From: a virus
DNA length: 64,000 bases
Direction: 5' to 3' (one strand)
IMG/VR virus record: IMGVR_UViG_3300032220_001630
Span: 1 to 64,000 of that record
Each line of letters starts with the position of its first letter. Position 1 is the stretch's first letter. The notes under the pieces were generated by a model. It was not told the DNA's origin. It saw only the letters and a list, made by a program, of their open reading frames with translations, and ran no database searches. Below are positions 4,542 through 62,762 of this stretch, one piece after another. The position numbers were made by a program, and so were the translations under genes.

Positions 4542-5165
4542 ATGGCAGCAAAAAACATTCAGGAATTGGCAGAAAGCTTTATGCGGACTTCGTCAGAGAA
4601 GGATTTCGTAGAGCTTTACAAAAGAATTAAACCAGGACTTTTAAACCACTGTAAATCCATTTTGGTGGAGCAAGAAGCAGCAGAAGATGCTGTCTCAAAT
4701 ACAATGGCTAAGATCTGGACAAAAATAGCCCAGTACGATCCTCTTAGAGGAAATTTCTCAACTTGGGTTTATAATATAGCTAGGAACGAATCACTAGTTA
4801 TAAAAAAATGTGAGGATAGGTATATGCCTATCATACAAGAGATCATAAAAAATTCAGATGATAGTTCAGATGATCCGCAAATCTCTATAAATAAATTCGA
4901 AGAGGATAATTCGTTCGAGGTCACTTTCAGTAACGAGGATCAGAATGAGATGGAGGGATTATACGAGAACGTCATAGAAAAAATGAAAGGTCTTCCTGCT
5001 ATTTATAAAGATATTCTTTTCGATAGAGAAATACTAAGAATGAAATATCAGGACATAGCAGACAAGCACGGAATGAAGAAAAGAGCGATAGCAACAAGAA
5101 TAAGAAGAGCAAGATTAAAGGTGAGAGAAATGTTCCCTGGAATAAATCTTACTTTTAACGATTGA
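4542..5165 (+). CDS. ECF-like sigma-70 factor
   Basis: Region 2 'AEDAVS..MAKIW...YDP.RGNFSTWVYNIARN'; region 4 HTH 'MKYQDIAD..GM...AIATRIRRAR'. Confidence 0.88.
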   Translation: MAAKNIQELAESFMRTSSEKDFVELYKRIKPGLLNHCKSILVEQEAAEDAVSNTMAKIWTKIAQYDPLRGNFSTWVYNIARNESLVIKKCEDRYMPIIQEIIKNSDDSSDDPQISINKFEEDNSFEVTFSNEDQNEMEGLYENVIEKMKGLPAIYKDILFDREILRMKYQDIADKHGMKKRAIATRIRRARLKVREMFPGINLTFND

Positions 5166-7032: not shown

Positions 7033-7040
7033 GATATATA
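7033..7040 (+). promoter_or_regulatory. Candidate late promoter GATATATA
   Basis: Motif recurs about 15 times just upstream of gene starts, strand-matched. Confidence 0.65.
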
Positions 7041-7045
7041 ATAAT

Positions 7046-8158
7046 ATGAAAAGGAAAATCTTACCTTGGATAATAGCACTTTCAGCTTTATCGGTATCTG
7101 CATCTGCTGCATTTTATTCTGTATCTGGTCTTGGAAAAATGTTTGCTGGTGCATCTTTACAAGTTATGATTCTAGCAGGTAGTCTAGAATTTGCTAAATT
7201 AGTTACTGCTTCATTACTTTATGAATATTGGAGCAAATTAAACAGAGCTTTAAAGTATTACCTTCTAATAGCGACATTTATTCTTATCGCTATCACATCT
7301 GCTGGTATTTATGGGTTCTTATCTTCAGCTTATCAAGAAACCGCTTTTAAAGTGGAAAACCAGGACAAAAATGTGGGTATGCTAGATAAGAGGATATTAA
7401 TTATCCAGTCTGAGCTATCTAGCTACGAAAAACAGGTGGAACAAAAAAATAACAGATTAACTCAGATAACCAATATTAGGTCAAATCTACAAGGAACACA
7501 GGATCAATTAATAGCTCAATCTAAATCAACCTCCGCAGTAAGACAACAAATAAAAGAAATTGATTCGGAAATAAAAAGAATTGATTCGGAAGTATCAGTA
7601 CTAAATGATTCTATTTCTTCTAAAAATGTACAGATAACAGATCTGGAGACGAAAAAGATAGATGCTTCATCTGATGAGGAACTTGCAAAAGAGGTTGGTC
7701 CTCTTAAATACATAGCAAGCTTAACCGGTAAGAGCTTAGCAGAAGTCGTAAACTGGTATATTATAGTCTTAATGCTCGTTTTTGATCCATTAGCAATAGC
7801 TTTGGTTCTAGCTGCTAACTTTGCTTTCAGTAAGAGTAAAGAGGAGGATAAGGATCAAGAAGAGACGAAAACAAAGGAAGAAGAGACACAAGAAGAATAC
7901 ACTGAATTAGAAATTGAAGAGACCAAAGAAGAAAATCCTATTGATATAAAGTTTAGAGATGATATATCAGATCCTTTATTAGATATTAAGGAGATAGCTA
8001 AAAAGGAGGAGGAAAATATACAAGAGGAGCCCCAGAATTTAGATCAGCCAAGTGATAAATACAGTAATGGAGAATTTGGTGGATATAAAGCGAAAGGAAT
8101 GCCTCCTGTAGATTATATGCCTCCTCAAAATTCAACAAATCCTTTAAGTTTAAGATGA
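7046..8158 (+). CDS. Membrane protein with long coiled coil
   Basis: Three N-terminal TM segments, central heptad region, a fourth TM ('VFDPLAIALVLA') and an acidic tail. Confidence 0.7.
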   Translation: MKRKILPWIIALSALSVSASAAFYSVSGLGKMFAGASLQVMILAGSLEFAKLVTASLLYEYWSKLNRALKYYLLIATFILIAITSAGIYGFLSSAYQETAFKVENQDKNVGMLDKRILIIQSELSSYEKQVEQKNNRLTQITNIRSNLQGTQDQLIAQSKSTSAVRQQIKEIDSEIKRIDSEVSVLNDSISSKNVQITDLETKKIDASSDEELAKEVGPLKYIASLTGKSLAEVVNWYIIVLMLVFDPLAIALVLAANFAFSKSKEEDKDQEETKTKEEETQEEYTELEIEETKEENPIDIKFRDDISDPLLDIKEIAKKEEENIQEEPQNLDQPSDKYSNGEFGGYKAKGMPPVDYMPPQNSTNPLSLR

Positions 8159-8736
8159 TAAAACCAGTATATACAACCGATACTCAATACATAAAATACC
8201 TAGACTGTAATCCTGGTGTTTACAGAAGAGTTGTTTTTCAATCATGTAATCTTGATATCAAAGAGGGATCTAATATCCTATCAAGTACATCTCTTTGTAA
8301 TTTTAAGTTAGAATCACTAGGAAATTCAGAACTTGGTGGATGCGGAGGAAATCTCAAGAAAAACATAACTCTTGCAGCTGGAGCAAATTATATACTAACT
8401 GCACCAGAAATAGGACAAGCGCAGGGAGAAGTACAGATGATTGTTGTTAAGGTTAAGTATAAAAAGGAACAGGCCGTAGAAGATAGGTATTTAACATGGG
8501 AATATAAAGGAAACGTATATCCTCTTTATTCTTTGATGTTTTTATCAGGAAGAACTGAACCTGATATTCCTTGGCAAGGATGGGATCTAAGTTATTATTC
8601 AAATAATCCCCCTTCACCCTCTTTTTCGCCAGCTTTATATCCTCCAGTAACATCACCAGACAATACTTTCGGAGGTATTATGTTTACTAATCCCGGAATT
8701 TATGAGGTAGATCTGGAAATATTAATTTTTAACTAA
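8155..8736 (+). CDS. Hypothetical beta-rich protein, paralogue of the next gene
   Basis: Shares FQxCNL, SLC, GWDL and GGxxxxNP motifs with 8736-9233. Confidence 0.65.
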   Translation: MIKPVYTTDTQYIKYLDCNPGVYRRVVFQSCNLDIKEGSNILSSTSLCNFKLESLGNSELGGCGGNLKKNITLAAGANYILTAPEIGQAQGEVQMIVVKVKYKKEQAVEDRYLTWEYKGNVYPLYSLMFLSGRTEPDIPWQGWDLSYYSNNPPSPSFSPALYPPVTSPDNTFGGIMFTNPGIYEVDLEILIFN

Positions 8737-9233
8737 TGGCAACAGCTCCACAAGTATGTAACACGATAGAATTTGAGGGTGTAATCTTTCAGAGATGTAA
8801 CTTACAAGTAGTTCAAGGAACAACAGTTCTTAGAGAATTATCTCTTTGTGATACTGATATTATCATAAATAATTTTTCAACTTTCAGTGGTTGTGTTTAT
8901 GGAAATTCGTCTCTACTACTTAATTCTGAAGGATTAGGAGAGCTTTCTTTTATAATGATAAAGGCCAGTTACCCGTCAACCTTACCGGTTGCTAGTAGAT
9001 TTATAAACATAATCTATAACGGCGCATATCTGCCGATGAGTAATCTTACAATTTTAACAGGAAATCCTAGCGATACTTCACCATCTATTCCTAATAGAGG
9101 ATGGGATTTAGATCCTAATGGAAGCGATATAGAATCACCATATTTCTCTAGCGGAGGAATGATATTATACAACCCACATTCAGTAAGAGTAAACGTGGAA
9201 GTTGTACTTGCAGGTGAATTTTTAACTTCTTAA
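8736..9233 (+). CDS. Hypothetical beta-rich protein, paralogue of the previous gene
   Basis: Same shared motifs; TAATG stop/start coupling. Confidence 0.65.
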   Translation: MATAPQVCNTIEFEGVIFQRCNLQVVQGTTVLRELSLCDTDIIINNFSTFSGCVYGNSSLLLNSEGLGELSFIMIKASYPSTLPVASRFINIIYNGAYLPMSNLTILTGNPSDTSPSIPNRGWDLDPNGSDIESPYFSSGGMILYNPHSVRVNVEVVLAGEFLTS

Positions 9234-9286: not shown

Positions 9287-9339
9287 GATATATAACTTTT
9301 AAATGAAACAAGAAAATCTCTAATAGAATAAGATATATA
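9287..9339 (+). promoter_or_regulatory. Tandem candidate late promoters
   Basis: GATATATA at 9287-9294 and 9332-9339. Confidence 0.6.
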
Positions 9340-9357
9340 CTAAAAAAGCGAATCAAA

Positions 9358-11747: not shown

Positions 11748-11924
11748 TTAGACGATTTAAAAGATTGTCTAGGAAAATTGAAAGAATTGGAAACTTCCAG
11801 TCTAGAAAACGGTAGAATTGGAATAGACGTAATTAAGGACTCTAAGGAAAATTTGGAAAAATTAAGGATTAATTTAGAAAATCAAATAAAAAAGTTCCAA
11901 AATAATTTCCCCGACCAGTCATGA
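11676..11924 (+). CDS. Unannotated 82-aa -1-frame extension of the 9358 protein
   Basis: Open frame VKTNKLTESETSPEEGIGNRLSFILDDLKDCLGKLKELE...NNFPDQS*; no ATG; its TGA overlaps the next ATG (ATGA). Confidence 0.7.
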   Translation, partial: VKTNKLTESETSPEEGIGNRLSFILDDLKDCLGKLKELETSSLENGRIGIDVIKDSKENLEKLRINLENQIKKFQNNFPDQS

Positions 11925-12277
11925 TCTACGTAAAAAATAAAGAGCTAAAAAGAGCTTTACTCGAAAGCAAAGAAAAAGGAGAGCTAACTAGCGAAACCGT
12001 AAAAATGTTTACTTTAATAGTAAACGGTATGTCCAAGACACATTCCTATAGAGATACAGAAGACAGAGAAGATTGCATATCTTCAGGATTAGAAGATCTA
12101 GTTAAATACTGGAACAGATACGATCCAGAAAAATCTGATAATCCCTTTGCATTTATATCCCAAATAGCACACAATGGAATGAAAAAAGGATGGAAGAAAA
12201 TTCATCCACCAAAATCAATTAAAACAATCCCTTTTTCTAGAATAGTAAGAGAAGAGAATTCAAACTATAATGTTTAA
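11921..12277 (+). CDS. gp55: Late-transcription sigma factor (T4 gp55-like)
   Basis: 'YVKNKEL', 'REDCISSGLE..VKYWNRYDPEKSDNPFAFISQIA'; region-2-only sigma. Confidence 0.82.
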   Translation: MIYVKNKELKRALLESKEKGELTSETVKMFTLIVNGMSKTHSYRDTEDREDCISSGLEDLVKYWNRYDPEKSDNPFAFISQIAHNGMKKGWKKIHPPKSIKTIPFSRIVREENSNYNV

Positions 12278-12279
12278 TC

Positions 12280-12768
12280 GTGGATATAAAAAAACTCAAG
12301 CCTTCTGATAGATTTAAGTCGGGAAAGTACTTCCCTACCAATCCAGAGAAGTATGTGGGTGATATACACAATATAATTTATAGGAGTTCATGGGAAAGAA
12401 AGTTTTGTCAATATTGTGACATTAATCCAAATATAACTAAATGGAGCTCTGAACCTTGTGCTATTCCCTATTGGAGTCCAATCGATAAAAAGGAGCACAA
12501 ATATTACGTTGATTATTACATCCAGGTTAAAAAAGCAAACGACGTATTAGAAAATTGGTTTATTGAAATAAAACCTGAAAATCAATACGACCTTAAAAAA
12601 AGACCAAAAGAACCAACCGGTAATTTAACAGAAAAGAAGATAAGGTCTTACAACGAAAAATTAAAAACCTGGATAACAAATAGAGCTAAATTCGAAGCTG
12701 CAACAAGATTTGCAGAAGCTAGGGGATATAAATTTGGAGCTATAAACGAAAGCTTCATAATGAGATGA
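12280..12768 (+). CDS. gp4: Head completion nuclease (T4 gp4-like, TnsA fold)
   Basis: 'NPEKYVGD..NIIYRSSWERKFC', 'WSSE', 'IPY', 'IEIKP', 'N.AKFEAA'. Confidence 0.88.
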   Translation: MDIKKLKPSDRFKSGKYFPTNPEKYVGDIHNIIYRSSWERKFCQYCDINPNITKWSSEPCAIPYWSPIDKKEHKYYVDYYIQVKKANDVLENWFIEIKPENQYDLKKRPKEPTGNLTEKKIRSYNEKLKTWITNRAKFEAATRFAEARGYKFGAINESFIMR

Positions 12769-13355
12769 AACCCTTTAATCAATTATTCGAAGACTACAAA
12801 CTACAAGTTTCTGGACTAACCTCTTTATCAGAGGAGTCATTTATGTTTTGGTTTAAAAATTACGTTAACCAAAAATCTGAATTTAACCCAAAAGACTTCT
12901 TAACTGGAAGAGTTTATTCTTTCGAGTATAATGACAAGATTGAAAAGAATAAAAAGTTCATAAATAAAAGACCAGTAGTATTTTTTACTGGCTTTCATAG
13001 TAAGGGAGATCAAAATTATTTTAACGGAGTAGATCTTATACTAATGCCTCCAATGATAAGAATACCTTTATTTACTAGAATACAGAGCGTTTATTCATCA
13101 CAAATAGAAAATATCATAAAGATGGATAAGCAAGGAGAAAAAAGCCAAATACAATTAAAAACAGACTATGAGGTATTGAATACAATTTTCAAAGGTATTC
13201 CATTTAAAAATGCTTATAGGTTTTGGGATCTTAAAAAAATAAGGGATGTCAAAGAAATTCCTTATGAAGAATGGACTAGAATAGTATATCTACATACGAG
13301 GTCAATTGAAGGGACCCCGATAGAAGAGATATATAATAAAAATATGCAGGTTTAA
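12765..13355 (+). CDS. gp2: DNA end protector (T4 gp2-like)
   Basis: 'GRVYSFEY', 'FNGVDL..MPP..R', 'EIPYEEW'; adjacent to gp4. Confidence 0.55.
   Translation: MKPFNQLFEDYKLQVSGLTSLSEESFMFWFKNYVNQKSEFNPKDFLTGRVYSFEYNDKIEKNKKFINKRPVVFFTGFHSKGDQNYFNGVDLILMPPMIRIPLFTRIQSVYSSQIENIIKMDKQGEKSQIQLKTDYEVLNTIFKGIPFKNAYRFWDLKKIRDVKEIPYEEWTRIVYLHTRSIEGTPIEEIYNKNMQV
13328..13335 (+). promoter_or_regulatory. Candidate late promoter for the portal genes
   Basis: GATATATA 19 nt before the portal ATG. Confidence 0.6.
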
Positions 13356-14944
13356 TGGCTGGATTTACAGATGGAAATAAAACTTTTTTTAGCTCGATAA
13401 TAGACAGCGTTAGGAAAGTTGGTAGCTTCGGGATGGCCTATGGTGATCTAGTAGTAAAAAATTCACAAGCTGTCGGTGTAACAGAAGCACAATTCTTAAA
13501 GAAAGGAGGAATAAAAGATGAGGCTTTTCTTTTTGGATTAAAAAGGTCAGATACAACTACTAAGCAATACATAGCTTATTTTGATAAGGACTTCAAAAAT
13601 AAAAGACACTATGTACAGGGATTTGCACAAAATCCAGAGATAGAGTTTATATTGGATACAGTATGTGATGAAGCAATAGTCTATGACGAGAAAAATTTCT
13701 GGGCATACTTCTCTTTCATGCAGCATGATGATGTGGATGATGACGTTGCAAAAAAAGTTCAAAAAAGATATAAAGAGATTTACAATCTCTTTGGATTTAA
13801 CCAAGACATCTTAGCTTGGCACTTATTTAGAAAATTCTTAATCGAAGGTATAATATCATTCGAAATCATATTTGACAAGAAAGGGAAAAATATCATAGGA
13901 TTTAAAGAAATAGATGCGGCTTCTTTAGTACCTACAGTTGAACAGCAGCCTGATGGATCATACGTAGATATCTGGATACAGTATCCCGATAATCCATCAC
14001 TAACAAGAAAACTTTACGATTCACAATTAATCTATATAAGTTATGCTAAAGGTGGAGGAACTTCTGCAAGAATAAGCTATATTGAAAGATTGATAAGATC
14101 TTTTAACCTCTTGAGGATAATGGAGCACACTAGAATCATCTGGAACGTGATGAATTCTTCTTTCCGTATGGCAATGACAGTTCCAATCGGTACTAAATCC
14201 CCACAAAAAGCAAAGCAAACATTAGGCGAACTTATGTCTATTTATAAAGAGGACATAAGGTTAAATACAGACAGTGGAGAATTAACAGTTGATGGGAGAC
14301 CAAAAATACAATTCTTTAAGAACTATTTAATGCCTTCATCACCAAACGGAACTCCAGATATACAGCCTTTAGCTGGCGGAGGTGATGCTAGTGCATTTTC
14401 AGATACAAAAGCTTTACAATATTTCGCTAATAAACTTAGAATAGATTCAAAAGTCCCTGCAACAAGATTTGGTAGAGACGACTCTGGATCTGAAGGTACC
14501 ATTACATTCTCTGCAGATGGATTAGATCAGGAAGAAATAAGATTTGGTAAATTTATAAACAGACTTAGATCTATTTACCAGGAGATATTAATGAAACCAC
14601 TATGGGTTCAATTCTGCTTAGATTTTCCACAGCTAAAAAATGATTATATAATTAAGTCAGAATTTGGACTAGATTATGTTAAAGAAAATATGTTCCTGGA
14701 AGCTAAGGAAATGGAGGTCATGACTGCAAGAAAGGATCAGGTTATAAAAATTCTAGGTCTTAAAGATTCAGAAGGTAAATCATACTTCAGTTTAAAATTT
14801 GCTCTCGATAGATGGTTAGGAATGACCCCTCAGGATATGTTGGATAACGAAAAAGCTAAGAAAGAAGCAGCAGAGAAAAAGAAGGAAGAGGGCAAAGAGG
14901 AAAAACCTGAAGGTGAAGGTTCTGGAGAAGAATTTAAAATATAA
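13355..14944 (+). CDS. gp20: Portal protein, copy 1 (T4 gp20-like)
   Basis: 'PEIE..LD.VCDEAIV', 'SYIER.IRSFN.LRIME', 'YF..KL....KVP.TR', 'EIRF.KFI.RLR'. Confidence 0.88.
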   Translation: MAGFTDGNKTFFSSIIDSVRKVGSFGMAYGDLVVKNSQAVGVTEAQFLKKGGIKDEAFLFGLKRSDTTTKQYIAYFDKDFKNKRHYVQGFAQNPEIEFILDTVCDEAIVYDEKNFWAYFSFMQHDDVDDDVAKKVQKRYKEIYNLFGFNQDILAWHLFRKFLIEGIISFEIIFDKKGKNIIGFKEIDAASLVPTVEQQPDGSYVDIWIQYPDNPSLTRKLYDSQLIYISYAKGGGTSARISYIERLIRSFNLLRIMEHTRIIWNVMNSSFRMAMTVPIGTKSPQKAKQTLGELMSIYKEDIRLNTDSGELTVDGRPKIQFFKNYLMPSSPNGTPDIQPLAGGGDASAFSDTKALQYFANKLRIDSKVPATRFGRDDSGSEGTITFSADGLDQEEIRFGKFINRLRSIYQEILMKPLWVQFCLDFPQLKNDYIIKSEFGLDYVKENMFLEAKEMEVMTARKDQVIKILGLKDSEGKSYFSLKFALDRWLGMTPQDMLDNEKAKKEAAEKKKEEGKEEKPEGEGSGEEFKI

Positions 14945-14947
14945 AAA

Positions 14948-16621
14948 ATGGCAGGATTCGTAGACAATTTACAAAAATTAAATCCCAATTTATCAAGAAT
15001 AATAAAGTCAATTAGCGGGCTTGGATCTTTTGGTATGGAGTACAAAGACATGGTCATTGAAGATTCCATGGCAATAGGTATTTCTGAAGCTAACCTAAGA
15101 GAAAGATTTGGCTACGGAGCAGACGACGAGGACTTTATTTACAGCATAGCTGCACAGGATTCTTCAAATAGAAAATATATTGCATATTTTGATAAGGATT
15201 ATCCAGTAAGAAGGGATTTTTTAAGAACGTTTGCACTTAATGCAGAGATAGAATACGTTTTAGATACTTTATGTGACGAAGGAATAGTTTATGACGAGAA
15301 AAATTTCTTTTGTCATCCCGCAACTATGAACATGGATCTTAAAGACGATGTTATGAAATCTTTAAGAGGTAACTTTAGAAAGCTTTATGTCCTTCACAAC
15401 TTCACAAACGGATTAACTGCTTGGCAATACTTTAGACAGCTTTTAGTTGATGGATTTTTAGCATTTGAAATAATTTATTCTAGTGACGGCAAAAATATAG
15501 TAGGATTCAAGGAATTAGATGCTACTAGTCTTACTCCTGCAGTAGAAAGAAAAGCTGACGGATCTAGAGAATCCCTTTGGTGGCAATATTACGGAGATAC
15601 AACTAGACAAAGAAAACTTTTAGATGCTCAAGTAATCTATATCTCCTATGCTAAAGCTAATACTGCAGCTAGAACTTCTTATTGTGAAAGATTAGTTAGA
15701 TCTTATAACCTTCTTAAAATAATGGAGCATTCCAGAATAATATGGAATGTAATGAATTCACAGTACAGAATAAAAATGACTGTACCAATTGGAAGTAAAT
15801 CTCCGCAAAAGGCTAAAGAAACTTTAGGCGAACTTATGTCCGTATACAAAGAGGATATAAAACTTGATACTTCATCAGGAGAACTTGCAATTAACGGAAG
15901 ACCAGATTTACAATTCTATAAAAACTATCTTTTCCCACAAAGCGGCGGTGAATCAACTAAAGTTGAGACTATAAACGCTCAAGGACCAAATCTGAATATT
16001 ATGGATTCGGTAGTTTATTTCTATAATAAATTAAGACAGGATTCTAAAATACCATATAATAGATTTTCTGCAAGATGGGGTTCAGGTAGTGCTGCAGCTT
16101 ATAAAATTCCAGCAGACGGATCAGAAAGAGACGAAGTTAGATTTGCAAAATTTATAACACGTCTAAGATCTATTTTCCAAGAAATAGTAGTAAAGCCTCT
16201 ATGGATACAAATGTGTTTAGATTTTCCACATTTAAAAAATGATTCTGAATTTAGAAGCCAAATTGGGGTTAAATTTGAGAGCGATAATACTTTTGGAGAA
16301 TCAAGAGAGATAGAGCAGCTTTTAAAACATATAGACTTCATAAATTCCTTAGGTGAAATAAAAGAAACAGTTAATGACGAAGAAGTTCAATTCTTCAATC
16401 AAGACTTCCTTATAGAAAGATGGTCAGGATTGCCATATGAAGATATAATGGCAAATAAAAAATATAAGGAAAAAGAAAAAGGTGAAGCTGCACCAGCAGA
16501 AGCTCCTGCTTCTGAAGAGACCCCAGCTGAAGAGACACCTGCTGAAACACCAGCAGAAGAAACACCAGCTGAGACCCCTGCTGAGACATCAGAGGAGGGA
16601 GGAGAAGAAACTACAACCTAA
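14948..16621 (+). CDS. gp20: Portal protein, copy 2 (T4 gp20-like)
   Basis: Colinear with copy 1 and carries the same motifs; acidic PAEET tail. Confidence 0.88.
   Translation: MAGFVDNLQKLNPNLSRIIKSISGLGSFGMEYKDMVIEDSMAIGISEANLRERFGYGADDEDFIYSIAAQDSSNRKYIAYFDKDYPVRRDFLRTFALNAEIEYVLDTLCDEGIVYDEKNFFCHPATMNMDLKDDVMKSLRGNFRKLYVLHNFTNGLTAWQYFRQLLVDGFLAFEIIYSSDGKNIVGFKELDATSLTPAVERKADGSRESLWWQYYGDTTRQRKLLDAQVIYISYAKANTAARTSYCERLVRSYNLLKIMEHSRIIWNVMNSQYRIKMTVPIGSKSPQKAKETLGELMSVYKEDIKLDTSSGELAINGRPDLQFYKNYLFPQSGGESTKVETINAQGPNLNIMDSVVYFYNKLRQDSKIPYNRFSARWGSGSAAAYKIPADGSERDEVRFAKFITRLRSIFQEIVVKPLWIQMCLDFPHLKNDSEFRSQIGVKFESDNTFGESREIEQLLKHIDFINSLGEIKETVNDEEVQFFNQDFLIERWSGLPYEDIMANKKYKEKEKGEAAPAEAPASEETPAEETPAETPAEETPAETPAETSEEGGEETTT
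16486..16590 (+). repeat. Coding (P)AEET repeats in the tail of portal 2
   Basis: PAEAPASEETPAEETPAETPAEETPAETPAET. Confidence 0.8.
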
Positions 16622-21082: not shown

Positions 21083-21118
21083 TTCATGTCCGGATATATA
21101 AAGCAAAATACCTCTGGA

Positions 21119-21123
<5 letters not shown>
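21083..21123 (+). promoter_or_regulatory. Late promoter embedded in a start-occluding hairpin
   Basis: GATATATA at 21093; TTCAT-g-TCCGGA can pair with TCTGGA-ATGAA, covering ATG 21119. Confidence 0.55.
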
Positions 21124-24649
<3,526 letters not shown>

Positions 24650-32062: not shown

Positions 32063-32070
32063 GATATATA
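32063..32070 (+). promoter_or_regulatory. Candidate late promoter
   Basis: GATATATA 12 nt before the protease ATG. Confidence 0.65.
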
Positions 32071-32082
32071 AAAAAATAAAAA

Positions 32083-34143
32083 ATGGAAAAAAACTTAGAC
32101 TACGTACTTATACTAGAAAAATCATCTAATAATCTTTCGTCTGTAAAAAAAGACGGAGATTATTTCTTAGAAGGTGTAGCTGCTGTATTCGGGGTAGAAA
32201 ATTCAAATCATAGAATATATGAGGAGAAGGAATATCTTCCACATTTAGACTATCTTAAGAAGAAGATCGATCAAAATAGATTAGTAGGTGAATTAGATCA
32301 CCCTAAAGAATTTGATGTGTCTTTAAAAAATATTTCTCATATCATCACAGATTTAGATTACGATGATGATAAAAGAGTAGTAAGAATTAAAGTTAAGCTT
32401 CTAGATACTCCAGCAGGTAAAATCGCAAAGAGTTTAGTTGATGCTGGTATACCTATTTCAATTTCTTCTAGAGCAGCAGGTAATGTAAAAGACAATAAAA
32501 AAGTAGAGATCAAGAAGATTTTTACTTATGATCTTGTTGCAGATCCTGGATTCGAAAATGCTCAATTAGAAAGAGTTCAAGAGAGTCTATACGAGAGTTT
32601 AGGATACGGTTCTTTTAATGATACACAAAAAAGTTCAGTAATTTCCACACTTACCAATATAAATGAAAGTTTTGGTCTAAGAAAAAATTCCAACACGCAG
32701 ATATATAGAATTAAAGATACGGAGAAAATCTCTAGACTCTTGAAAGAAAACACAACAAATAATTCAAAGAATATGGACAATAACTTTGTCACTGCAGAAG
32801 AACTAAACGAATATTCTCTCATTCTTAAAAAAGAGATGGATTCTTTAAAGAATGAAATTAAATCCGTTTCTAAAGGTTCTAGTAATACATCTACTTCTAA
32901 TGGTGATCAATCTTTAGAAGAAAGAGTACAAAGACTTGAAAAATACTCTGAGTATCTTGCTGAGAATCTAGAATCTTCTATTAAGTATGGTGATTATTTA
33001 GCAGAAAATTTAGAAGGGTCTATATCTTACAATAAATATTTAGCTGAAAATCTTGACAAAGCTATTTCATATGCTAAATACTTAGCAGAGCACGTAGACG
33101 GAAATATTTCTTATTCTGAATACATCGCAGAGAATTTAGATAACAATATCGCTTATAGCAAATACATAGCTGAAAACTTAGACAAGAACATTTCTTACTC
33201 TGAGTACTTAGCAGAAAATTTAGATAAAAACATTTCGTATTCAGAATATCTTGCAGAGAACTTAGACAAGAACATTTCTTACTCTGAGTACCTAGCAGAA
33301 AATCTTGACAAAAACATTTCATATTCAGAATATCTTGCAGAGAACTTAGACAGAAACATTTCTTATTCTGACTATCTTGCAGAAAATTTAGATAAGAGCA
33401 TTTCTTATTCAGATTACCTAGGAGAAAAATTAAACGGTAACATTAACTACTCTGACTATTTAGCAGAGAAAGTTAAATCTGGTATCGAATACACTCAATA
33501 CGTTGCAGAGTCAATGAATAAGGGTGGATCTCCTAAAGCTGATTTAGGAAAACAAGTTAATGAATCAGTTAACACTGGCAAGAGAACTTCAGGTTTCTCA
33601 GGAGACTACACTTCTCTTTCAGGTAAGGTTGATCAATTAATAGAATCTCTTAATAAGAACAAGACTGAAGAAATTATTAGTGAAAATAAATATTCTTTCT
33701 TAAAGCTTGTCGATGACAATACCAAGAAAGGATTTCTTTCTTTGAACGAGGCCGAAAAACAAAAGGTCGCTAAAGCTCTTAACGAGCAGAACTATAATTC
33801 GGGTACGGATGTAGTTCAAATAATGGGATCTGCTTTAACTGAGCAGGTTAACTCAGGAGAAAAATTCTTAGACATGATGCCAGAAGATTTGGTACCGGTT
33901 TGGGAGTCTTTAAATGAATCACAAAGAGCATCAATTATTGCTCAGAGTAAATTCTACAAATTAGACACACCTTATCAGATCAATCACTTCTGGAGAACAC
34001 GTCCTAATTTTTCAGCTCCAGCTGCTAACCTAGAACAATTAAGCGAATCTCAGCAAGTTCAAAACAACACTGCTAAAATGGGGATCAGCAATAGCTATCT
34101 CCAAAACATCGCAGCTGAATTGGACAAAAGATTTAAAAAATAA
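32083..34143 (+). CDS. gp21: Prohead protease (gp21-like) fused to scaffold/core protein
   Basis: 'N.N.RIY', GELDHP, 'SH.I', 'LDTPAGKI', 'ISSRAAG', 'YDLVADPGF'; long helical repeat C-terminal part; directly before the capsid gene. Confidence 0.9.
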   Translation: MEKNLDYVLILEKSSNNLSSVKKDGDYFLEGVAAVFGVENSNHRIYEEKEYLPHLDYLKKKIDQNRLVGELDHPKEFDVSLKNISHIITDLDYDDDKRVVRIKVKLLDTPAGKIAKSLVDAGIPISISSRAAGNVKDNKKVEIKKIFTYDLVADPGFENAQLERVQESLYESLGYGSFNDTQKSSVISTLTNINESFGLRKNSNTQIYRIKDTEKISRLLKENTTNNSKNMDNNFVTAEELNEYSLILKKEMDSLKNEIKSVSKGSSNTSTSNGDQSLEERVQRLEKYSEYLAENLESSIKYGDYLAENLEGSISYNKYLAENLDKAISYAKYLAEHVDGNISYSEYIAENLDNNIAYSKYIAENLDKNISYSEYLAENLDKNISYSEYLAENLDKNISYSEYLAENLDKNISYSEYLAENLDRNISYSDYLAENLDKSISYSDYLGEKLNGNINYSDYLAEKVKSGIEYTQYVAESMNKGGSPKADLGKQVNESVNTGKRTSGFSGDYTSLSGKVDQLIESLNKNKTEEIISENKYSFLKLVDDNTKKGFLSLNEAEKQKVAKALNEQNYNSGTDVVQIMGSALTEQVNSGEKFLDMMPEDLVPVWESLNESQRASIIAQSKFYKLDTPYQINHFWRTRPNFSAPAANLEQLSESQQVQNNTAKMGISNSYLQNIAAELDKRFKK
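32700..32707 (+). promoter_or_regulatory. Internal late promoter before a nested in-frame start (ATG 32773)
   Basis: GATATATA at the protease/scaffold boundary. Confidence 0.55.
32944..33510 (+). repeat. 14 x 42-bp coding repeat (YSEYLAENLDKNIS; last unit partial)
   Basis: In-frame 14-aa repeat with synonymous variation. Confidence 0.92.
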
Positions 34144-34155
34144 GATCTAAAAAAA

Positions 34156-35943
34156 ATGCAACTCTTAAATCAAAACGAGATCTACGAAACATGGTCTCCT
34201 ATCATTGAGAGCAAGACCGGCATGACTGATCGTTCAAAAGTAGAATGGCTTTCTAAATATTGCCACTTCCACTCACTTAACGAATCTGCTGGAGCTTATA
34301 ACTCTCTTTCAGTAATCCCAGGTATGGGTAACATCTTACCTCCAGGTAACTACTCAGGTGGTGCTGCTGGTGCTGGTAACGCAGGTTTTTACTACAACAA
34401 CACTTACAACGCTGGTACTCCATATGTTGGTTCTGGTGATAAGTTCCCTTCATTACTTCCATTGGCTATTCAGGTAGCTGCTAAAACCGTTGGTTTTGAC
34501 ATCGTTCCTGTTATTCCTATGGCTGGTCCTACAGGGGTACTTTCTTACCTTGACTATGTATATGCAGGTGGTACTTTAACTGGTACTTCAACAGATTCAG
34601 GTACAGGTTACATCGCTAATACACCTGATATGATCAAGGTTCCTATTGCGACTGCATCTCCAGTATACGGTACTTTAACTGTAGGTTCTAACTACGCTAT
34701 TTACGTAACTGGTGCAGCTCCTACTTCAGGTCTTGCTTCTGGTAACGCTGGTGCTATTGGTACTTACGTTGGTAACTCACGTATTGACGGTTTCCCAATC
34801 TTCAGAATTATCGGTATCACTACTGGTTCTTCAGTTGCTGCTGCAATCACTGCTAACTCTGAGATTAAAGCTGTTACTTTAACTTCTGCAGCTGGTGCAA
34901 TCCCTACATGGGCATCACTTGGTTCTTTAGTTGCTTACTCTGGTGGTGCTGCTGTATTAGTTAAAACGTTAGAAGATCACATCCAAGGTTTCTCTGGTGC
35001 TGGTCCAACTAACAACAACAACTGGCAAGGTCCTTACGTAGACGGTACTCAAAACTACGATCCAATGTTAAGAGGTACAGCCGAGTCAACTTACTTCAAG
35101 TCTCTTGGTTTATCTACTTTCACTAAGTTCGTAGAAGCTGGTACTTTCCAAGTTGCTGCTTCTGTTACTACTGAGCAAATCCAAGACCTTAACAAGCAAT
35201 TCGGTATCGACGTAGTTTCTATGATCGAGAACGCTCTTGTTAACGAGGTTTCTCAAGCTATTAACAAGCACATCTTATCAAGAGGTTTTGCTCTTGGTTG
35301 GTCAAACCACTCACAATTCTTCGTAACTGAAAGTACAAACCTTAACCTTAACTTAGTAATTGGCGGTCTTGCTGCAAGTTATGCAGTTCCTTCTTACGTA
35401 GGTAAGACTGGTTCTCCTGTAACTGGAGCACCAGGTTCAGTTGCTGGTCCTGCTTCAGGTACTTTCGAGAACTTATCAACAGTTCAAAGAAGACTTTACA
35501 GCCGTATCTTAGCTGCTGCTAACGTAGTTGCTAACAGAGGTCGTAGAGGTCCTGCTAACTTCATCGTTACTAACTCACAAATTGCTTCTGCTCTACAAGA
35601 CATTAGCCAATTTACATTCGCTCCATTTACTAACACTCTTACTCAAAACAACGGTACTTTATACCCAGTAGGTTCACTTGCAGGTATGACAGTATATGTT
35701 GACCAAAACATGTCATTCGGTGACACTAGAGTATTAGTTGGTAGAAAAGGTGCTGATGATGAGCCAGGTATGAAGTTCATGCCTTACATGATGGCTGAAT
35801 CAATTCAGACTATCTCTGAAGGTACTATGTCTCCTAAGATCGCGGTTAAGTCTCGTTACTCTTTAGTTGAGGCTGGTCACTTACCAGAGACTATGTATTT
35901 CACGTTCCACGTTAATACTGGTTCTGCTACTTCTATCATCTAA
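34156..35943 (+). CDS. gp23: Major capsid protein (T4 gp23-like)
   Basis: 'W.PIIE', 'V.PMAGPTG', 'EQIQDL', 'RRGPANFIV', 'FMPY', 'PKIAVKSRY'; strong high-expression codon bias. Confidence 0.95.
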   Translation: MQLLNQNEIYETWSPIIESKTGMTDRSKVEWLSKYCHFHSLNESAGAYNSLSVIPGMGNILPPGNYSGGAAGAGNAGFYYNNTYNAGTPYVGSGDKFPSLLPLAIQVAAKTVGFDIVPVIPMAGPTGVLSYLDYVYAGGTLTGTSTDSGTGYIANTPDMIKVPIATASPVYGTLTVGSNYAIYVTGAAPTSGLASGNAGAIGTYVGNSRIDGFPIFRIIGITTGSSVAAAITANSEIKAVTLTSAAGAIPTWASLGSLVAYSGGAAVLVKTLEDHIQGFSGAGPTNNNNWQGPYVDGTQNYDPMLRGTAESTYFKSLGLSTFTKFVEAGTFQVAASVTTEQIQDLNKQFGIDVVSMIENALVNEVSQAINKHILSRGFALGWSNHSQFFVTESTNLNLNLVIGGLAASYAVPSYVGKTGSPVTGAPGSVAGPASGTFENLSTVQRRLYSRILAAANVVANRGRRGPANFIVTNSQIASALQDISQFTFAPFTNTLTQNNGTLYPVGSLAGMTVYVDQNMSFGDTRVLVGRKGADDEPGMKFMPYMMAESIQTISEGTMSPKIAVKSRYSLVEAGHLPETMYFTFHVNTGSATSII

Positions 35944-38177: not shown

Positions 38178-38202
38178 GATATATAATAAAAAAAGACAAA
38201 AA

Positions 38203-41086: not shown

Positions 41087-42502
41087 ATGTGTGGAATTTT
41101 AGTAGCTATTAACCCGACAAAGGAAAGGATAGAATCTATATCTCATAGAGGAATAGAACATTCTATTGTAAACGATCAAAATCTATATCTAGTTCATCAC
41201 AGGCTTCCAATACAAACAGTGGATGGTGATAGCTGGTCACAGCCTATACAAATTGGCGAAAATAGGTGGCTGTTATTTAATGGCGAGATTTTCAATTATA
41301 GTGGCGGATTCGATTCGGATACAGCATACCTTCAAAATCTATTTAGTAGTTTTAATTTTAGTGGTATTGACATGCTACAAGCTATATACGAACCCCATAT
41401 AGTTTCATGGGATGGGTTTTGGGCAATAGTTATGGTAGACACCAAAGAGAAAGAAATATATGCTTTTACTGATCCTTTGGGCAAAAAGGTTTTATACAAG
41501 AACGATCTTGGCGAAATCTGCTCAGAAATAAAAGGATTATTTGAAAAGGACAATGAACCCGCACCAGATCCATCATTCTTCAGTGGTGTTATAAAGTGGG
41601 GATATTTAACCACCGATCAGACACCTTATGAAGGCATAAAAAAACTACAACCTAATAGATTTTATAAATGGAATCTCTATAACCCATCAAAAATGGAAGT
41701 ATCTGATCCATATTATAATTTTTACTCTTTTGAGGCAGGATTAGAAACATATGAAGATAGAATGGATTGGTTATGGAATAAACTTGAAAATTCAGTAGAA
41801 TCAAGATTGATCTCTAAAAACTACCCGACATCTCTTCTGTTATCAGGGGGTTTAGATTCTGCCATTATTGCAGGTCTTCTTCTTAAACTCGGAGCAGATG
41901 TTCAGTTTTATTCTATATCCAACGGTGAAGATGAGCAATACGTAAAAGCATGTGAGGAATATTGGGGTGTTAAATCTATAAGATTAGATTACGATGTTGA
42001 CATAGAAAGCGAAGAGGGTAAGAATAAAACACTAGAAATATATCAGAAATGGAATGAATCACCCATAGATATGGGAAGTGTTCTACCTCAATATCATTTA
42101 TTTGATGCAATAAAAAAAGGATCTAAAACCAGGATAGTTATTTCAGGAGATGGAGCTGATGAATTATTTGGAGGATATAGGAGAATTAATGAATACGATT
42201 CACAAGATTCAGACATCTTTCACGAATTAACTTCATACCATCTACCAAGATTGGACAAGTTATCAATGGCACACACCTTGGAGCTTAGAAGTCCTTTTTT
42301 AAATCACGACATAGTAAGATTTGCTTTAACACTTCCTTTTGAAGAGAGAAAGAATAAAAAAATATTGAAGGATACTTTTAAAGGATTAGTTCCAGATTCA
42401 GTAATTGAAAGAAAAAAATTGCCTCTTAAAAATCAGATGATTGTAGAGGATCAAATTTCTTACAGAAAAAAGATAAAGGATTTATATCTTAAATCCATTT
42501 GA
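41087..42502 (+). CDS. asnB: Asparagine-synthase-like glutamine amidotransferase
   Basis: MCGI, HRG, HRL, FNGEIFNY, LSGGLDS, SGDGADELFGGY, 'SMAH.LE.RSPFL'. Confidence 0.9.
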   Translation: MCGILVAINPTKERIESISHRGIEHSIVNDQNLYLVHHRLPIQTVDGDSWSQPIQIGENRWLLFNGEIFNYSGGFDSDTAYLQNLFSSFNFSGIDMLQAIYEPHIVSWDGFWAIVMVDTKEKEIYAFTDPLGKKVLYKNDLGEICSEIKGLFEKDNEPAPDPSFFSGVIKWGYLTTDQTPYEGIKKLQPNRFYKWNLYNPSKMEVSDPYYNFYSFEAGLETYEDRMDWLWNKLENSVESRLISKNYPTSLLLSGGLDSAIIAGLLLKLGADVQFYSISNGEDEQYVKACEEYWGVKSIRLDYDVDIESEEGKNKTLEIYQKWNESPIDMGSVLPQYHLFDAIKKGSKTRIVISGDGADELFGGYRRINEYDSQDSDIFHELTSYHLPRLDKLSMAHTLELRSPFLNHDIVRFALTLPFEERKNKKILKDTFKGLVPDSVIERKKLPLKNQMIVEDQISYRKKIKDLYLKSI

Positions 42503-43963
42503 TAAAACTACCTCCACACCCGCAACAGGATCCCCTTTTGCGTCTTTTGGAGAATATCCGTCTGGTCTATCTGTTAATACGAAATCCTCTGAAGGATCTA
42601 CTATTAAACCTGCGGAGCTTAGAAAATCTCTATTTAATAAAAGAGGTGTGCTTTTTTCAGTTCTATCTACTAGTGAAAACTTTACTTTCTTGTAAAGAAT
42701 ACCATTGAATTCAACATCAAGATTAACAACCGCTCTGTGGTGGATTTTTTCACCAACCTCAGCTTTAGATTGTCCTACGATTTTATTTACAAATTGCTGA
42801 TTACCTAAAGTCCATACCACTTCTCCGTCTTTTTCTTCGATAGTATCTGCGTGTAACGAACAAGACGTAGCACCATTACCAGTATCTAATTTTCCTACAA
42901 ACGTACCAACTCCAGAGATAGATATCAATTCTCTAAATCCTGTTACTTTCTTAGGCTTAACCCAGTTTTTTCTATCAATTAAGAAATCTACTACAATATC
43001 TGTTACTGGTATACCGGTTGTTTTTTCTATCCCCGTAGTTCCAGGAGATGCGTTAACTTCTAATACGTATGGGTTTTCTGTTCCTTTATCAACAATTATA
43101 TCAACTCCACACCATAGACAACCTGTAGCTTTAGCAGATTCAATAGCTATTTTTTCTATCGATTCTGGTAGCTCTACTGTTTCAGTGTCACCACCGAGTG
43201 AGAAGTTAGTTCTAAAATCGCCTTTAATCTTAATTCTTTTCATCGCTGCGATGACTTTGTACTCTCTTCCAGACATACCATCAGATTCAGCAATTACGTG
43301 AATTCTTAAGTCATATTCAGCTTCGATTTTTTCTTGTAAAACTATCTCAGTTCCTGGTGCTAAATGCCATAAAGCTTGAAGAGTAGAAACTAATGATGGT
43401 CTCGAATCAATCATGAATACTCCTATACCTTTAGTTCCTGAAAGAAACTTACATACTACAGGGTATTTTCCACCAACATCTTCAACAGCCTTATCTATAT
43501 CTGCCTCAGAAGATATTAAAGATGTTTTAGGTACGGGGATATTATTTAATTGAAGCTTTCTTGTTGTTTGTAATTTATCCTCACATATGATAACAGAATC
43601 ATAAGAGTTAACACAAGGAAAACCTAAATCTTCCATTTTCTTAAAGAATCCCTTAGCAGCATTATTTTTTATGGAAGATCTTCTAGTTAGAACTATTGTA
43701 CGATCAAGATAAATTTCTTGCTGTTTATCTCCTCTACTAGATATAAGATATGTTCCTTTTGGTGTTTTTTGAATAGATCCTTTTTCTGTATCTACTATAA
43801 TACATTTTAAACCTTTCTCCTCACATATCTTCATTATTTTGTCAGTGGTTGGAGCATTCTTTAGGGTCTTACCTAATTTAGTGGTTAGCACAACTACTGT
43901 TAAGGGTCTTTCTTTTCCTTTTACCCCTTTGAATATAAATTTTTCTAGCAATGGATTATCCAT
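42482..43963 (-). CDS. rimK: RimK-family ATP-grasp ligase fused to a RimB-like aspartic-fold protease
   Basis: 'DK..T...L...IPVPKT', 'GTKGIGV', 'DFRTNFSLGG', 'GVD', 'EVNASPG'; C-terminal 'KLDTGNG..SLHA', 'FSLVDR....PLLLNRDFL'; minus-strand GATATATA at 43968. Confidence 0.9.
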   Translation of the reverse strand: MDNPLLEKFIFKGVKGKERPLTVVVLTTKLGKTLKNAPTTDKIMKICEEKGLKCIIVDTEKGSIQKTPKGTYLISSRGDKQQEIYLDRTIVLTRRSSIKNNAAKGFFKKMEDLGFPCVNSYDSVIICEDKLQTTRKLQLNNIPVPKTSLISSEADIDKAVEDVGGKYPVVCKFLSGTKGIGVFMIDSRPSLVSTLQALWHLAPGTEIVLQEKIEAEYDLRIHVIAESDGMSGREYKVIAAMKRIKIKGDFRTNFSLGGDTETVELPESIEKIAIESAKATGCLWCGVDIIVDKGTENPYVLEVNASPGTTGIEKTTGIPVTDIVVDFLIDRKNWVKPKKVTGFRELISISGVGTFVGKLDTGNGATSCSLHADTIEEKDGEVVWTLGNQQFVNKIVGQSKAEVGEKIHHRAVVNLDVEFNGILYKKVKFSLVDRTEKSTPLLLNRDFLSSAGLIVDPSEDFVLTDRPDGYSPKDAKGDPVAGVEVVLSNGFKI

Positions 43964-47652: not shown

Positions 47653-48276
47653 ATGTGCCCCCAATTCTTAGTTATCGCTTACTATACTGAAAACACTTCC
47701 TACCAAGACTTAGCTGAAAAATTAAAAAATTCGCTTCAAAGGTTTGGTTTACCCCATTACATAGAACCTATCAAAGATCAAGGCTCATGGGAAAAGAATA
47801 CACACTACAAAGCTTATTTTATTAAGAAATGTCTAAATGACAGAAATCTAGATCTTCTCTACGTAGATGTAGATGCAGTGTTTAAAGCGTATCCTAGCTT
47901 AATCGATGGCTTAGATTGTGACATTGCATACAGAACCCAAGATTTTAGATGGAGAAAAGATGAGGCCTTATCTGGTACTATCTTTCTAAAGAACAATGAC
48001 AAGGTAAAGAGGTTAGTTGATAGGTGGATAGAGATTAACGAAAAGACTCCTGCTGAAAGAATGAAACCTGAGACCTGGGAGCAAAAAAATATGCAAACCG
48101 CACATAGAGAATTCTCCGATGTGGTTTATTATAATCTACCACCAGAATATACTTTTATATTTGATCACTCAAGAACAATGTATCCTAAGGCTTCTCCTGT
48201 AATAGAGCATTACCAAGAATCTAGAAATGTACATCGAAATAATTTACAATCTCGAGGTATAATTAGAAAAAGATAG
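47653..48276 (+). CDS. GT-A glycosyltransferase (nucleotide-diphospho-sugar transferase-like)
   Basis: 'KAYFI..CL....LLYVDVD', 'SGTIFL', 'EQ', 'LPPEY..IFD', 'IEHYQ.SR'. Confidence 0.72.
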   Translation: MCPQFLVIAYYTENTSYQDLAEKLKNSLQRFGLPHYIEPIKDQGSWEKNTHYKAYFIKKCLNDRNLDLLYVDVDAVFKAYPSLIDGLDCDIAYRTQDFRWRKDEALSGTIFLKNNDKVKRLVDRWIEINEKTPAERMKPETWEQKNMQTAHREFSDVVYYNLPPEYTFIFDHSRTMYPKASPVIEHYQESRNVHRNNLQSRGIIRKR

Positions 48277-48277
48277 A

Positions 48278-49009
48278 ATGCAATTAACCTATGCAGTAGT
48301 CAGCTCTAATTCCAACCCTGAGTACTTGGATTTTTGGCCATATGTGGCAAAAATGTGGCAGAGGATAGGATTAGAGCCTGTCCTTTTTTATATAGATAAA
48401 GAAGCTCCTAAGGAAAATGCGGCAGAATATGGTAGAGTTATCTTTCTAGAATCTATACCCGAATGGGACATAGCCCAACAGGCACAGTGTATTAGATTTT
48501 GGGCTGCAAAGGTTTTAGACAATCCTTTTATTATCTCAGATATTGATATGCTTCCTATTTCAAAGGATTATTACATAAATGAAGCATTGAAAATAGGACA
48601 CAGAGGTATAATATCCTATAGTTCTGATATTATCAAATATAGATGGTATAGGACTAATCCTCAGTATCCTATGTGTTATCTTGCCGGAGATCCCTTATCA
48701 TTCACACAGCTTCTGGATATGAATGATACTGATCATAAAAGTTTTCTCAGAAGATTAATGAGAATGAATATCAGATTTGGTACTGATCAAAAATTCTTCT
48801 ATAACCAATCCCTTCGAAAGCCTGATATTAAAATTAAGCATTTGGAGAGAGGATGGATAGAAGAAAAATATGCGGTTAAAAGACTTGATAAAGCTATCTG
48901 GCCAAAATCTGATTATAATCCAGAGGAATATATAGACTGTCATTTACCTAGACCCTTATCATCAAATGCAGTCCTTTGTAAAAAATTATTTAGTAAGCTA
49001 GATTTATGA
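48278..49009 (+). CDS. Putative glycosyltransferase, paralogue of 59107
   Basis: 'FWPYV..MW', SDIDMLP (DxD), 'GTDQ', 'YIDCH..RP'. Confidence 0.55.
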   Translation: MQLTYAVVSSNSNPEYLDFWPYVAKMWQRIGLEPVLFYIDKEAPKENAAEYGRVIFLESIPEWDIAQQAQCIRFWAAKVLDNPFIISDIDMLPISKDYYINEALKIGHRGIISYSSDIIKYRWYRTNPQYPMCYLAGDPLSFTQLLDMNDTDHKSFLRRLMRMNIRFGTDQKFFYNQSLRKPDIKIKHLERGWIEEKYAVKRLDKAIWPKSDYNPEEYIDCHLPRPLSSNAVLCKKLFSKLDL

Positions 49010-49647
49010 CAAATCTCCCTATATTTATATCCTATCATACTGGGGATTCTTATTATTCCTCCTGTGCAGAAAATCTTGTATCTAATATAAGATCTTTAGG
49101 CGGTGAGATAATAATGGAGAAAGTTACAGATACTGGATATTACTGGAAGAATACTTTAAAAAAGCCTGGGTTCATACTTTCTAAAATGGATGAACTAAAA
49201 AGAGATCTAATTTGGATAGATGCAGATACCAATATTTTTGGATATACAGATTGTATGAAAAAATGGGAATCCGATATACTATTTGCATCCCATACCGGAG
49301 ACATCCATGGTATAAAGGCATCTCCTATGGGTATAAAGTACAGTGAAAAAACACTGGGATTCTTTAAAAAATTTTCAGATTTGTGTAATCATAAAATAGA
49401 ATCCAATGAATTGGATTTAGATCACGACGTTTTAAAGTATGAATTACTTCCTGATTACAAGGAGAAGATCAGTTTAGAAATTTTAGGTTGTGAAGGAGTA
49501 CCATCGGATTACACAGACGGGAAATATATAAGAAATGGAATTTCCAGAGGAATTAATAAAGGAAGAGAGGTTCATTCTGTCACTTTAAAAAATTCTACTA
49601 GAGATCTAAAATTTAGAATGCTATCTTTAAATGACTTCACAATATGA
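49006..49647 (+). CDS. GT-A glycosyltransferase
   Basis: 'KPGFI.......LIWIDAD', 'ASP', 'LDHD.LK'. Confidence 0.65.
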   Translation: MTNLPIFISYHTGDSYYSSCAENLVSNIRSLGGEIIMEKVTDTGYYWKNTLKKPGFILSKMDELKRDLIWIDADTNIFGYTDCMKKWESDILFASHTGDIHGIKASPMGIKYSEKTLGFFKKFSDLCNHKIESNELDLDHDVLKYELLPDYKEKISLEILGCEGVPSDYTDGKYIRNGISRGINKGREVHSVTLKNSTRDLKFRMLSLNDFTI

Positions 49648-53931: not shown

Positions 53932-53932
53932 A

Positions 53933-55437: not shown

Positions 55438-55438
55438 C

Positions 55439-57056: not shown

Positions 57057-57062
57057 AATATT

Positions 57063-59934: not shown

Positions 59935-59936
59935 AA

Positions 59937-60575: not shown

Positions 60576-60579
60576 ATCT

Positions 60580-62705: not shown

Positions 62706-62762
62706 TTCACGTTATAGGAGGAACTATCTTTAATACATTTTATATAATTTATAAATATCGTT

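Follow-up and report, generated by a model that had tools for sequence, protein, structure and literature searches.

Two diverged portal genes in tandem in an uncultured T4-like giant phage

Few features of tailed phages and herpesviruses vary as little as the homododecameric portal, the product of a single gene, and models of packaging, symmetry mismatch and DNA gating assume twelve identical subunits. What is the second gene for when a phage encodes two portal proteins? The question is raised by a window of 64,000 nucleotides (nt), the first 64 kb of the 103-kb IMG/VR virus record IMGVR_UViG_3300032220_001630, in which two complete genes for gp20-like portal proteins lie in tandem on the plus strand: portal paralog A (13355-14944; 529 amino acids (aa)) and portal paralog B (14948-16621; 557 aa). 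CheckV estimates the record to be 36% complete, and the whole genome would therefore be roughly 280 kb; its source is an uncultured giant phage of a T4-like lineage. We show here an old tandem duplication, retained universally in the sampled clade, with fixed divergence between the copies in the channel loop and the crown. The sequence comparisons support A and B as being both functional portal-type subunits. That they co-assemble in one portal ring, most simply as an alternating A6B6 dodecamer, is the explanation we favor, although we judge the case for it to be evenly balanced.

Two complete portal genes side by side

The two proteins are collinear and align end to end (BLASTP: 48% identity and 69% positives over 507 residues, E = 6e-175), and their genes are separated by a 3-nt spacer, AAA (14945-14947, plus strand), between the TAA stop of A and the ATG of B. 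Coordinates, junction and alignment all agree with the first-pass annotation of this DNA, which had described two full-length, collinear gp20-like open reading frames (ORFs) of 529 and 557 aa lying 3 nt apart. The sequence details given there were likewise recovered. Both ORFs start with MAGF, the common blocks YIAYFDKD, IVYDEKNF and MTVPIGxKSPQKAKxTLGELMS are all found in the A-B alignment, and the two C-terminal tails are acidic, of low complexity and unlike each other.

At the junction (AAA ATA TAA AAA ATG) the frame of A continues into B, with a stop and one further codon in between. Because stop-codon recoding is known in some of the phages nearest to this one, the genetic code was checked. 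Among the ORFs of at least 100 aa in the window, where genes are densely packed, the terminators are TAA in 43, TGA in 18 and TAG in 4. All three stops are in use, which indicates that the code is standard, that TAA is a real stop and that A and B are two genes. A read-through or recoded A-B fusion (a 1093-aa open frame) is ruled out by this stop usage, in which TAA is the main stop, and also by the frame offset between the two genes in relatives, which varies (28 pairs in frame, 17 not).

Both ORFs match PF07230 (Portal_T4) far beyond the gathering cut-off of 22.9 bits, A with 203.8 bits (E = 5.5e-60) and B with 199.5 bits (E = 1.1e-58), and both cover profile positions 9-432 of 433. They also match PHROG 213 (portal) with E of about 1e-57. 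The record thus has two PF07230 matches and departs from the rule of one portal gene per genome. AlphaFold2 (AF2) models of the single chains, based on a 99-sequence alignment, have a predicted local distance difference test score (pLDDT) of 79.2 and a predicted template modelling score (pTM) of 0.76 for A, and 79.8 and 0.75 for B. Helices and strands follow each other in identical order in the two models, and low-confidence loops (A 377-386, B 378-388) fall at the position of the flexible tunnel loop of T4. When the models were compared with known structures by Foldseek, the top 13 matches for A and for B were all T4 gp20 chains (6UZC, 9MKB, 9LU7, 9LU6, 3JA7), at E of 1e-16 to 3e-20 (best about 1e-20 for A and about 4e-19 for B) and with template modelling (TM) scores, relative to the target, of up to 0.70 (A) and 0.71 (B); the portals of other phages rank below these chains for both proteins. 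As modelled, A and B both have the full clip-stem-wing-crown portal fold of the T4 gp20 type.

Age and retention of the pair

Relatives of A and B are encoded on 114 and 148 IMG/VR stretches, respectively. ORFs were called on the fetched IMG/VR loci, and 100 loci contain both genes complete, representing 45 distinct pairs. In 45/45 distinct pairs A precedes B on the same strand, A ends in TAA in every complete pair, and B starts 2-11 nt past the stop codon of A. The orthologs are 66-95% identical to the window copies, and A is 46-49% identical to B in every genome. This constant A-B identity indicates that the cores have not been homogenized by gene conversion. Loci that do not have one of the copies are each cut by the contig end at that place, and neither copy is therefore missing in close relatives, a loss that the first-pass annotation had named as a point to check.

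To place the pair among other portals, relatives were sought among 1.84 billion cluster representatives, which yielded 715 at E up to 1e-10. In a tree of 100 rows A and B are each monophyletic (Shimodaira-Hasegawa-like approximate likelihood ratio test (SH-aLRT) 100) and are sisters of each other (SH-aLRT 96). The two subtrees branch alike, with L137 basal, followed by L071/L074/L075. A bootstrapped tree of 43 rows again recovers A (100/100) and B (100/100), and joins them on a short branch with moderate support only (ultrafast bootstrap (UFboot) 92 / SH-aLRT 61). Both phylogenies show A and B clades throughout the sampled lineage, the point on retention across relatives that the first-pass annotation had proposed to test by phylogeny. 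The favored reading, moderately supported by these trees, is one tandem duplication at the base of the sampled clade, before its radiation.

A single portal is found in neighboring phages. Within ±5 kb, loci of the P0002-like and LR756500-like kinds encode one portal, and whole records of 160, 173, 207 and 254 kb, together with the complete 462-kb LR756500, have exactly one PF07230 match each. P0011-like loci have one portal in 80/80 cases, by which an independent duplication in the neighboring clades (the sister pair P0011/P0018) is ruled out. What had seemed a second portal in the 735-kb LR756501 (L155; LR756501.1 15166-15351, minus strand) corresponds to no more than a C-terminal portal fragment of about 58 aa, in a 101-aa ORF that matches the last ~58 profile positions and lies far from the full portal gene of that genome. 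The 1059-aa P0141, considered as a natural fused double portal, is instead a portal interrupted by an intein. In this distant relative, the T4-type portal is split after profile position 277, and the intein has an HNH-like endonuclease (Pfam Intein_splicing, E = 1e-10).

Selection on the two copies was measured as the ratio of nonsynonymous to synonymous substitution rates (dN/dS), estimated pairwise by the Nei-Gojobori method and binned by dS, with the many pairs whose synonymous sites are saturated omitted. The ratios for A and B are 0.013 and 0.027 at dS 0.3-0.8, 0.023 and 0.033 at dS 0.8-1.5, and 0.045 and 0.049 at dS 1.5-3. Positions conserved in at least 90% of sequences number 334 in A and 333 in B out of 522 aligned (46 sequences each), and the counts are alike in every domain. 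Relaxed selection on one copy, another point raised in the first-pass annotation, is thus not seen in either, and A and B are under equally strong purifying selection.

The simplest dismissal of the pair would be that one copy is a redundant or decaying duplicate, or that two strains have been mis-joined in assembly. Such a view can point to the sole broken copy, a portal A on the 5-kb contig L027 (1542-3161) with a single in-frame TAG (KNYLMP*STNG). This TAG may be either an error of sequencing or a genuine nonsense mutation, and it is also the point at which a second contig, L083, breaks off. Against decay or artefact stand the 45 distinct pairs from many samples, all intact except L027, the dN/dS of 0.01-0.05 for both copies, and two deep clades with 100% support and matching topologies; mis-joined strains would not yield a constant A-then-B order and 46-49% identity. 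We regard this explanation as highly improbable.

Divergence between the copies and the proposed make-up of the ring

If both copies work, where do they differ? Domain limits of T4 gp20 (PMC4493910) were applied to an alignment that includes T4 gp20. The A-B identity is 72% in the stem, 59% in the C-terminal wing, 56% in the clip, 48% in the N-terminal wing, 44% in the N-terminus, 37% in the tunnel loop and 27% in the crown. The tip of the T4 clip (N291/M292/R295/K296) is the attachment site for the terminase gp17 and later for the neck (PMC4493910). No block is better conserved between the two proteins than that of the clip tip, which reads PIGTKSPQKAK in A and PIGSKSPQKAK in B; the lysine at T4 position 296 is invariant in both, and Q stands in place of R295. 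We infer from this conservation that A and B share a predicted partner-binding clip tip and hence would have the same partners.

Outside such blocks, 72 positions are fixed within each clade yet different between A and B; 22 of them alter charge, with full charge reversals at four (T4 132, 167, 346 and 447). Single-copy relatives conserve 132 positions. Of these, A and B both retain 91, A alone retains 10, B alone retains 20, and 11 are found in neither; A is the more derived and B the more ancestral-like copy. The clearest local asymmetry is in the channel-loop/inner-clip segment (T4 336-359), which lines the DNA channel. Here B retains the ancestral G341, T349, P354 and L356 (T4 numbering), whereas A has N, P, T and F at these positions, 89-100% conserved within the A clade. 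Judged from these residues, the channel loop of A is derived but constrained, rather than decaying. The tails of both proteins are hypervariable and acidic, composed of Gly/Ala/Thr/Pro/Glu, and that of B is long and of Pro/Ala/Thr/Glu in the window. The C-terminal tip of A is always E-F-[KT]-[LI] or a close variant, whereas the end of B is not conserved. In L061 and L109 A and B both end in AGGDMGTI with cores still about 48% identical, which indicates sequence exchange local to the low-complexity tails of these two.

An asymmetry of this kind might mean that only one copy is the true portal, with the portal fold of the other now put to use in an accessory ring or an assembly factor. The latter protein could stack as a second ring on the portal within the head, serve internal proteins or the end of the DNA as a plug or anchor, or start or chaperone assembly without staying in the mature virion. 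B retains more of the ancestral sites (20 versus 10 kept by only one copy), and A, having replaced all four ancestral channel-loop residues that B keeps, could have left the canonical role; the conserved C-terminal tip that A has and B does not could be read in the same way. However, the replacement residues in the A channel loop are strongly conserved and not relaxed, A has the clip tip of B, which would be needless for a ring stacked inside the head, the per-domain constraint is equal in A and B, and A retains 101/132 of the ancestrally conserved positions. Repurposing of one copy is therefore considered unlikely.

The two copies also differ in how charge is distributed among their domains. 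Crown charge was counted over A 444-515 and B 446-514, the crowns of their own AF2 models, and over T4-aligned columns for the relatives and T4. The net crown charge is +1.5 ± 1.7 in A (range -1 to 5; 46 genomes) and -9.3 ± 1.5 in B (range -12 to -3; 46 genomes), ranges that barely overlap. Single-copy relatives have -4.1 ± 2.3 and T4 has -5, and A and B average out near the ancestral value. In the wing the trend is opposite, with -6.2 in A and -1.7 in B for the N-terminal wing, and the tunnel loop and C-terminal wing together have -0.6 in A and +3.2 in B. The subunit interface of T4 gp20 is held mainly by salt bridges, including seven between subunits (PMC4493910), and complementary charge throughout the clade is for this reason what an alternating ring would predict.

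A mixed ring would need both proteins in the same place and in comparable amounts, which leads to the expression of the pair. The two portals close a tightly packed gene block on the plus strand that is opened by a gene for a gp55-like late sigma factor (11921-12277; PHROG 234, E = 2.4e-16; Pfam Sigma70_r2). It is followed by genes for a gp4-like head completion (TnsA-like) nuclease (12280-12768; PHROG 218 head closure, E = 3.9e-45; PF08722) and a gp2-like DNA end protector (12765-13355; PHROG 429, E = 4.7e-10). These three lie directly upstream of A and abut or overlap each other, and the stop of the gp2-like gene overlaps the start of A (TAATG). The first-pass annotation had placed one late motif upstream of the pair. 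A phage-specific motif, GATATATAATA, does lie there (13328-13338, plus strand), 27 nt before A and with none before B, but the T4 late-promoter consensus TATAAATA is absent upstream of the portal pair and is not enriched in the window. Further copies of GATATATAATA with at most one mismatch (7033-7043, 9332-9342, 32063-32073 and 38178-38188, all plus strand) stand 13-27 nt upstream of ORFs starting at 7046, 9358, 32083 (the prohead protease) and 38203, which are late or structural genes. A form of the motif precedes A in 45/45 orthologous loci (38 exact, 7 with a one-base variant) and B in 0/45; it overlaps the coding end of the gp2-like gene, and its conservation may partly reflect coding constraint. 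GATATATAATA is a candidate for the late-promoter element recognized by the gp55-like sigma factor, and differs from that of T4. No terminator-like hairpin was found between A and B. The motif before A only and the lack of a terminator between the genes point to co-transcription and roughly equal synthesis, and it is likely that A and B are on one late transcript and are made in similar amounts.

Co-expression also bears on the possibility that the phage builds two separate homododecameric rings, A12 and B12, for different particles or steps. There could be two virion types that differ in DNA gating or in the head interior, or one ring could serve prohead initiation and packaging and the other a sub-population as bet-hedging. 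Each copy has a complete fold with all domains constrained, and either could in principle form a ring alone. Some of the fixed charge swaps are self-consistent within a paralog (T4 132/167), and the most diverged parts, the channel loop, tunnel loop and crown, are those that touch the DNA and the head interior. With a common promoter-like motif and a spacing of 2-11 nt, however, both proteins would be in the same cell simultaneously. The stem (72%) and clip, which make inter-subunit contacts in T4 (PMC4493910), are among the most similar parts, and to avoid mixing of A and B a specificity would therefore have to have evolved. The twelve crowns of a B12 ring would sum to a charge of about -110, whereas those of single-copy relatives sum to about -50. 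Furthermore, the 103-kb record yielded a single prohead protease and a single major capsid protein. The gene for the gp21-like prohead maturation protease (32083-34143, plus strand; PHROG 207, E = 5.5e-39) and that for the major head protein (34156-35943, plus strand; PHROG 28442, E = 8.9e-83; PHROG 138, E = 1.6e-32) lie 15-19 kb downstream of the portals, and an all-versus-all BLAST of the record gave no paralog of either, both being single copy. Two separate rings are, in our view, a doubtful account of the pair.

The first-pass annotation had suggested a hetero-oligomeric (6+6) portal, two specialized vertices or alternative head forms, and the sequence comparisons bear it out in part. One shared ring is favored over two assemblies because of the common clip tip, the probable co-transcription with tight spacing and the complementary crown charge. 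A single tandem duplication of the portal gene would have preceded the radiation of the sampled clade, with both copies kept thereafter. A and B would be synthesized together in similar amounts and would join one ring at the single portal vertex, alternating as A6B6. The terminase, and after it the neck, would meet the common clip tip on both kinds of subunit, while the DNA channel would be lined by alternating loops, the ancestral in B and the derived in A. Inside the head, the crown would alternate near-neutral A modules with strongly acidic B modules, which would attract each other and together hold roughly the ancestral total charge. Such a portal would have six-fold rather than twelve-fold symmetry. 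In its strictest form, an obligate alternating A6B6 portal that would have no known hetero-oligomeric precedent among tailed viruses, the proposal is tentative and we hold it to be possible rather than probable.

Several observations weigh against the shared ring or the history proposed for it. In addition to the broken A copy of L027 and the moderate support for A and B as sisters in the 43-row tree, the A/B charges are totals per domain, and the split in crown charge would also suit two separate rings with different interiors. The charge swaps at T4 132/167 are E/K in A and K/D in B; they compensate for themselves within each paralog and are equally compatible with homomeric rings.

Surroundings of the pair and comparison with known systems

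The portal pair sits among T4-type head-morphogenesis genes, a genomic context that agrees with its family assignment. On the 3' side of the portals are genes for a DNA ligase and a clamp-loader-like protein, assigned by eye, and no homologs of gp13 or gp14 were identified within the 64-kb window. A second sigma-factor-like gene (4542-5165, plus strand; PHROG 1740 RNA polymerase sigma factor), taken with the gp55-like gene at 11921-12277, suggests more than one phage-encoded transcription stage. Shine-Dalgarno-like sites precede only 1/37 of the plus-strand genes with starts in 1-42500, and the leaders are A-rich. Scarce Shine-Dalgarno sites with A-rich leaders are typical of Bacteroidota and their phages, and the hosts of the nearest cultured relatives are Prevotella, Tenacibaculum and Chryseobacterium. 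This scarcity and the hosts of these relatives suggest a Bacteroidota host.

Several other features of the window were observed. Another pair of tandem paralogs (8155-8736 and 8736-9233, plus strand; 193 and 165 aa, 27% identical, E = 2e-18) consists of abutting genes upstream of a 773-aa ORF, and has no Pfam, PHROG or convincing PDB sequence match. A collagen-repeat tail-fibre-like protein of 1187 aa is encoded at 21086-24649 (plus strand; PHROG 6320, 819 and 5073), where the guanine plus cytosine (GC) content rises locally to 0.415 from about 0.33 elsewhere. A RimK-like gene (42482-43963; PHROG 2599 'ribosomal protein S6 glutaminyl transferase') is one of the few on the minus strand, in a short minus-strand island at 42.5-47.5 kb with inverted GC skew. 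The plus strand at 47653-63689 carries, over about 16 kb, genes of 200-320 aa placed back to back and in many cases overlapping, including two NAD-dependent sugar epimerase/dehydratases (55439-56389 and 62763-63689, 26% identical) and small paralog families (47653/49006/49644 and 48278/59107), and looks like a sugar or polysaccharide modification cluster.

How far does the pair resemble portals already known? A and B are like T4 gp20 in their family hidden Markov model and in the clip-stem-wing-crown fold with its tunnel loop; the clip-tip lysine equivalent to K296 is kept in both, and the head-gene context is also of the T4 type. They differ in that T4 and all characterized relatives have one portal gene and a homododecamer, whereas here there are two paralogs that are 48% identical. 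The sequence identity of A and B to T4 gp20 is only about 15-20%, the basic R338 and K342 of the T4 inner clip are not kept (S/G in A, Q/E in B), and T4 gp20 is without the long acidic low-complexity tails. The nearest database relatives are LR756500 (42-45% identity), Lak phages (35%), and PAU and PTm1 (28-30%). Uncultured huge phages (LR756500-LR756504, Lak) and jumbo Bacteroidota phages (PTm1, PAU-like) have the same MAGF N-terminus and family-wide motifs, but their portal gene is single.

In a search of the full-text literature, no paper was found on two portal genes, portal paralogs or a heteromeric portal ring in a phage, and a comparative review of jumbo phages treats the portal as a single gp20 ortholog. 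A lineage with two diverged portal genes, both under selection, would be a natural experiment on dividing portal functions between subunits, in which the channel loop and crown diverge and the clip tip and stem do not; it makes the possibility of a heteromeric ring testable. The two-portal clade would also affect the use of portal genes as single-copy phylogenetic markers in viromics.

Hetero-oligomeric rings that derive from duplicated homomeric ones are familiar in the proteasome, CCT and MCM2-7, and offer an analogy only. Another analogy is T4 gp23/gp24, a duplicated structural subunit of which both copies, differing at fixed sites, are maintained by purifying selection and take related positions in one symmetric assembly. 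The likeness is partial, in that gp24 occupies a geometrically distinct site, the pentameric vertices, whereas for A and B co-assembly is only proposed from sequence. The connector stack of T4 consists of 12 gp20, 12 gp13 and 6 gp14 (PMC12929587; PDB 9LU6/9LU7). In T4 the step from 12 to 6 is thus made by neck proteins beneath a homomeric portal, whereas an A6B6 portal would already be six-fold. A link between such a portal and the T4-type symmetry step of the neck is speculative. If it were true, the 12-to-6 step of the T4 neck would be shifted up into the portal itself, in a ring where DNA-channel loops of two kinds alternate, as does the charge of the crown.

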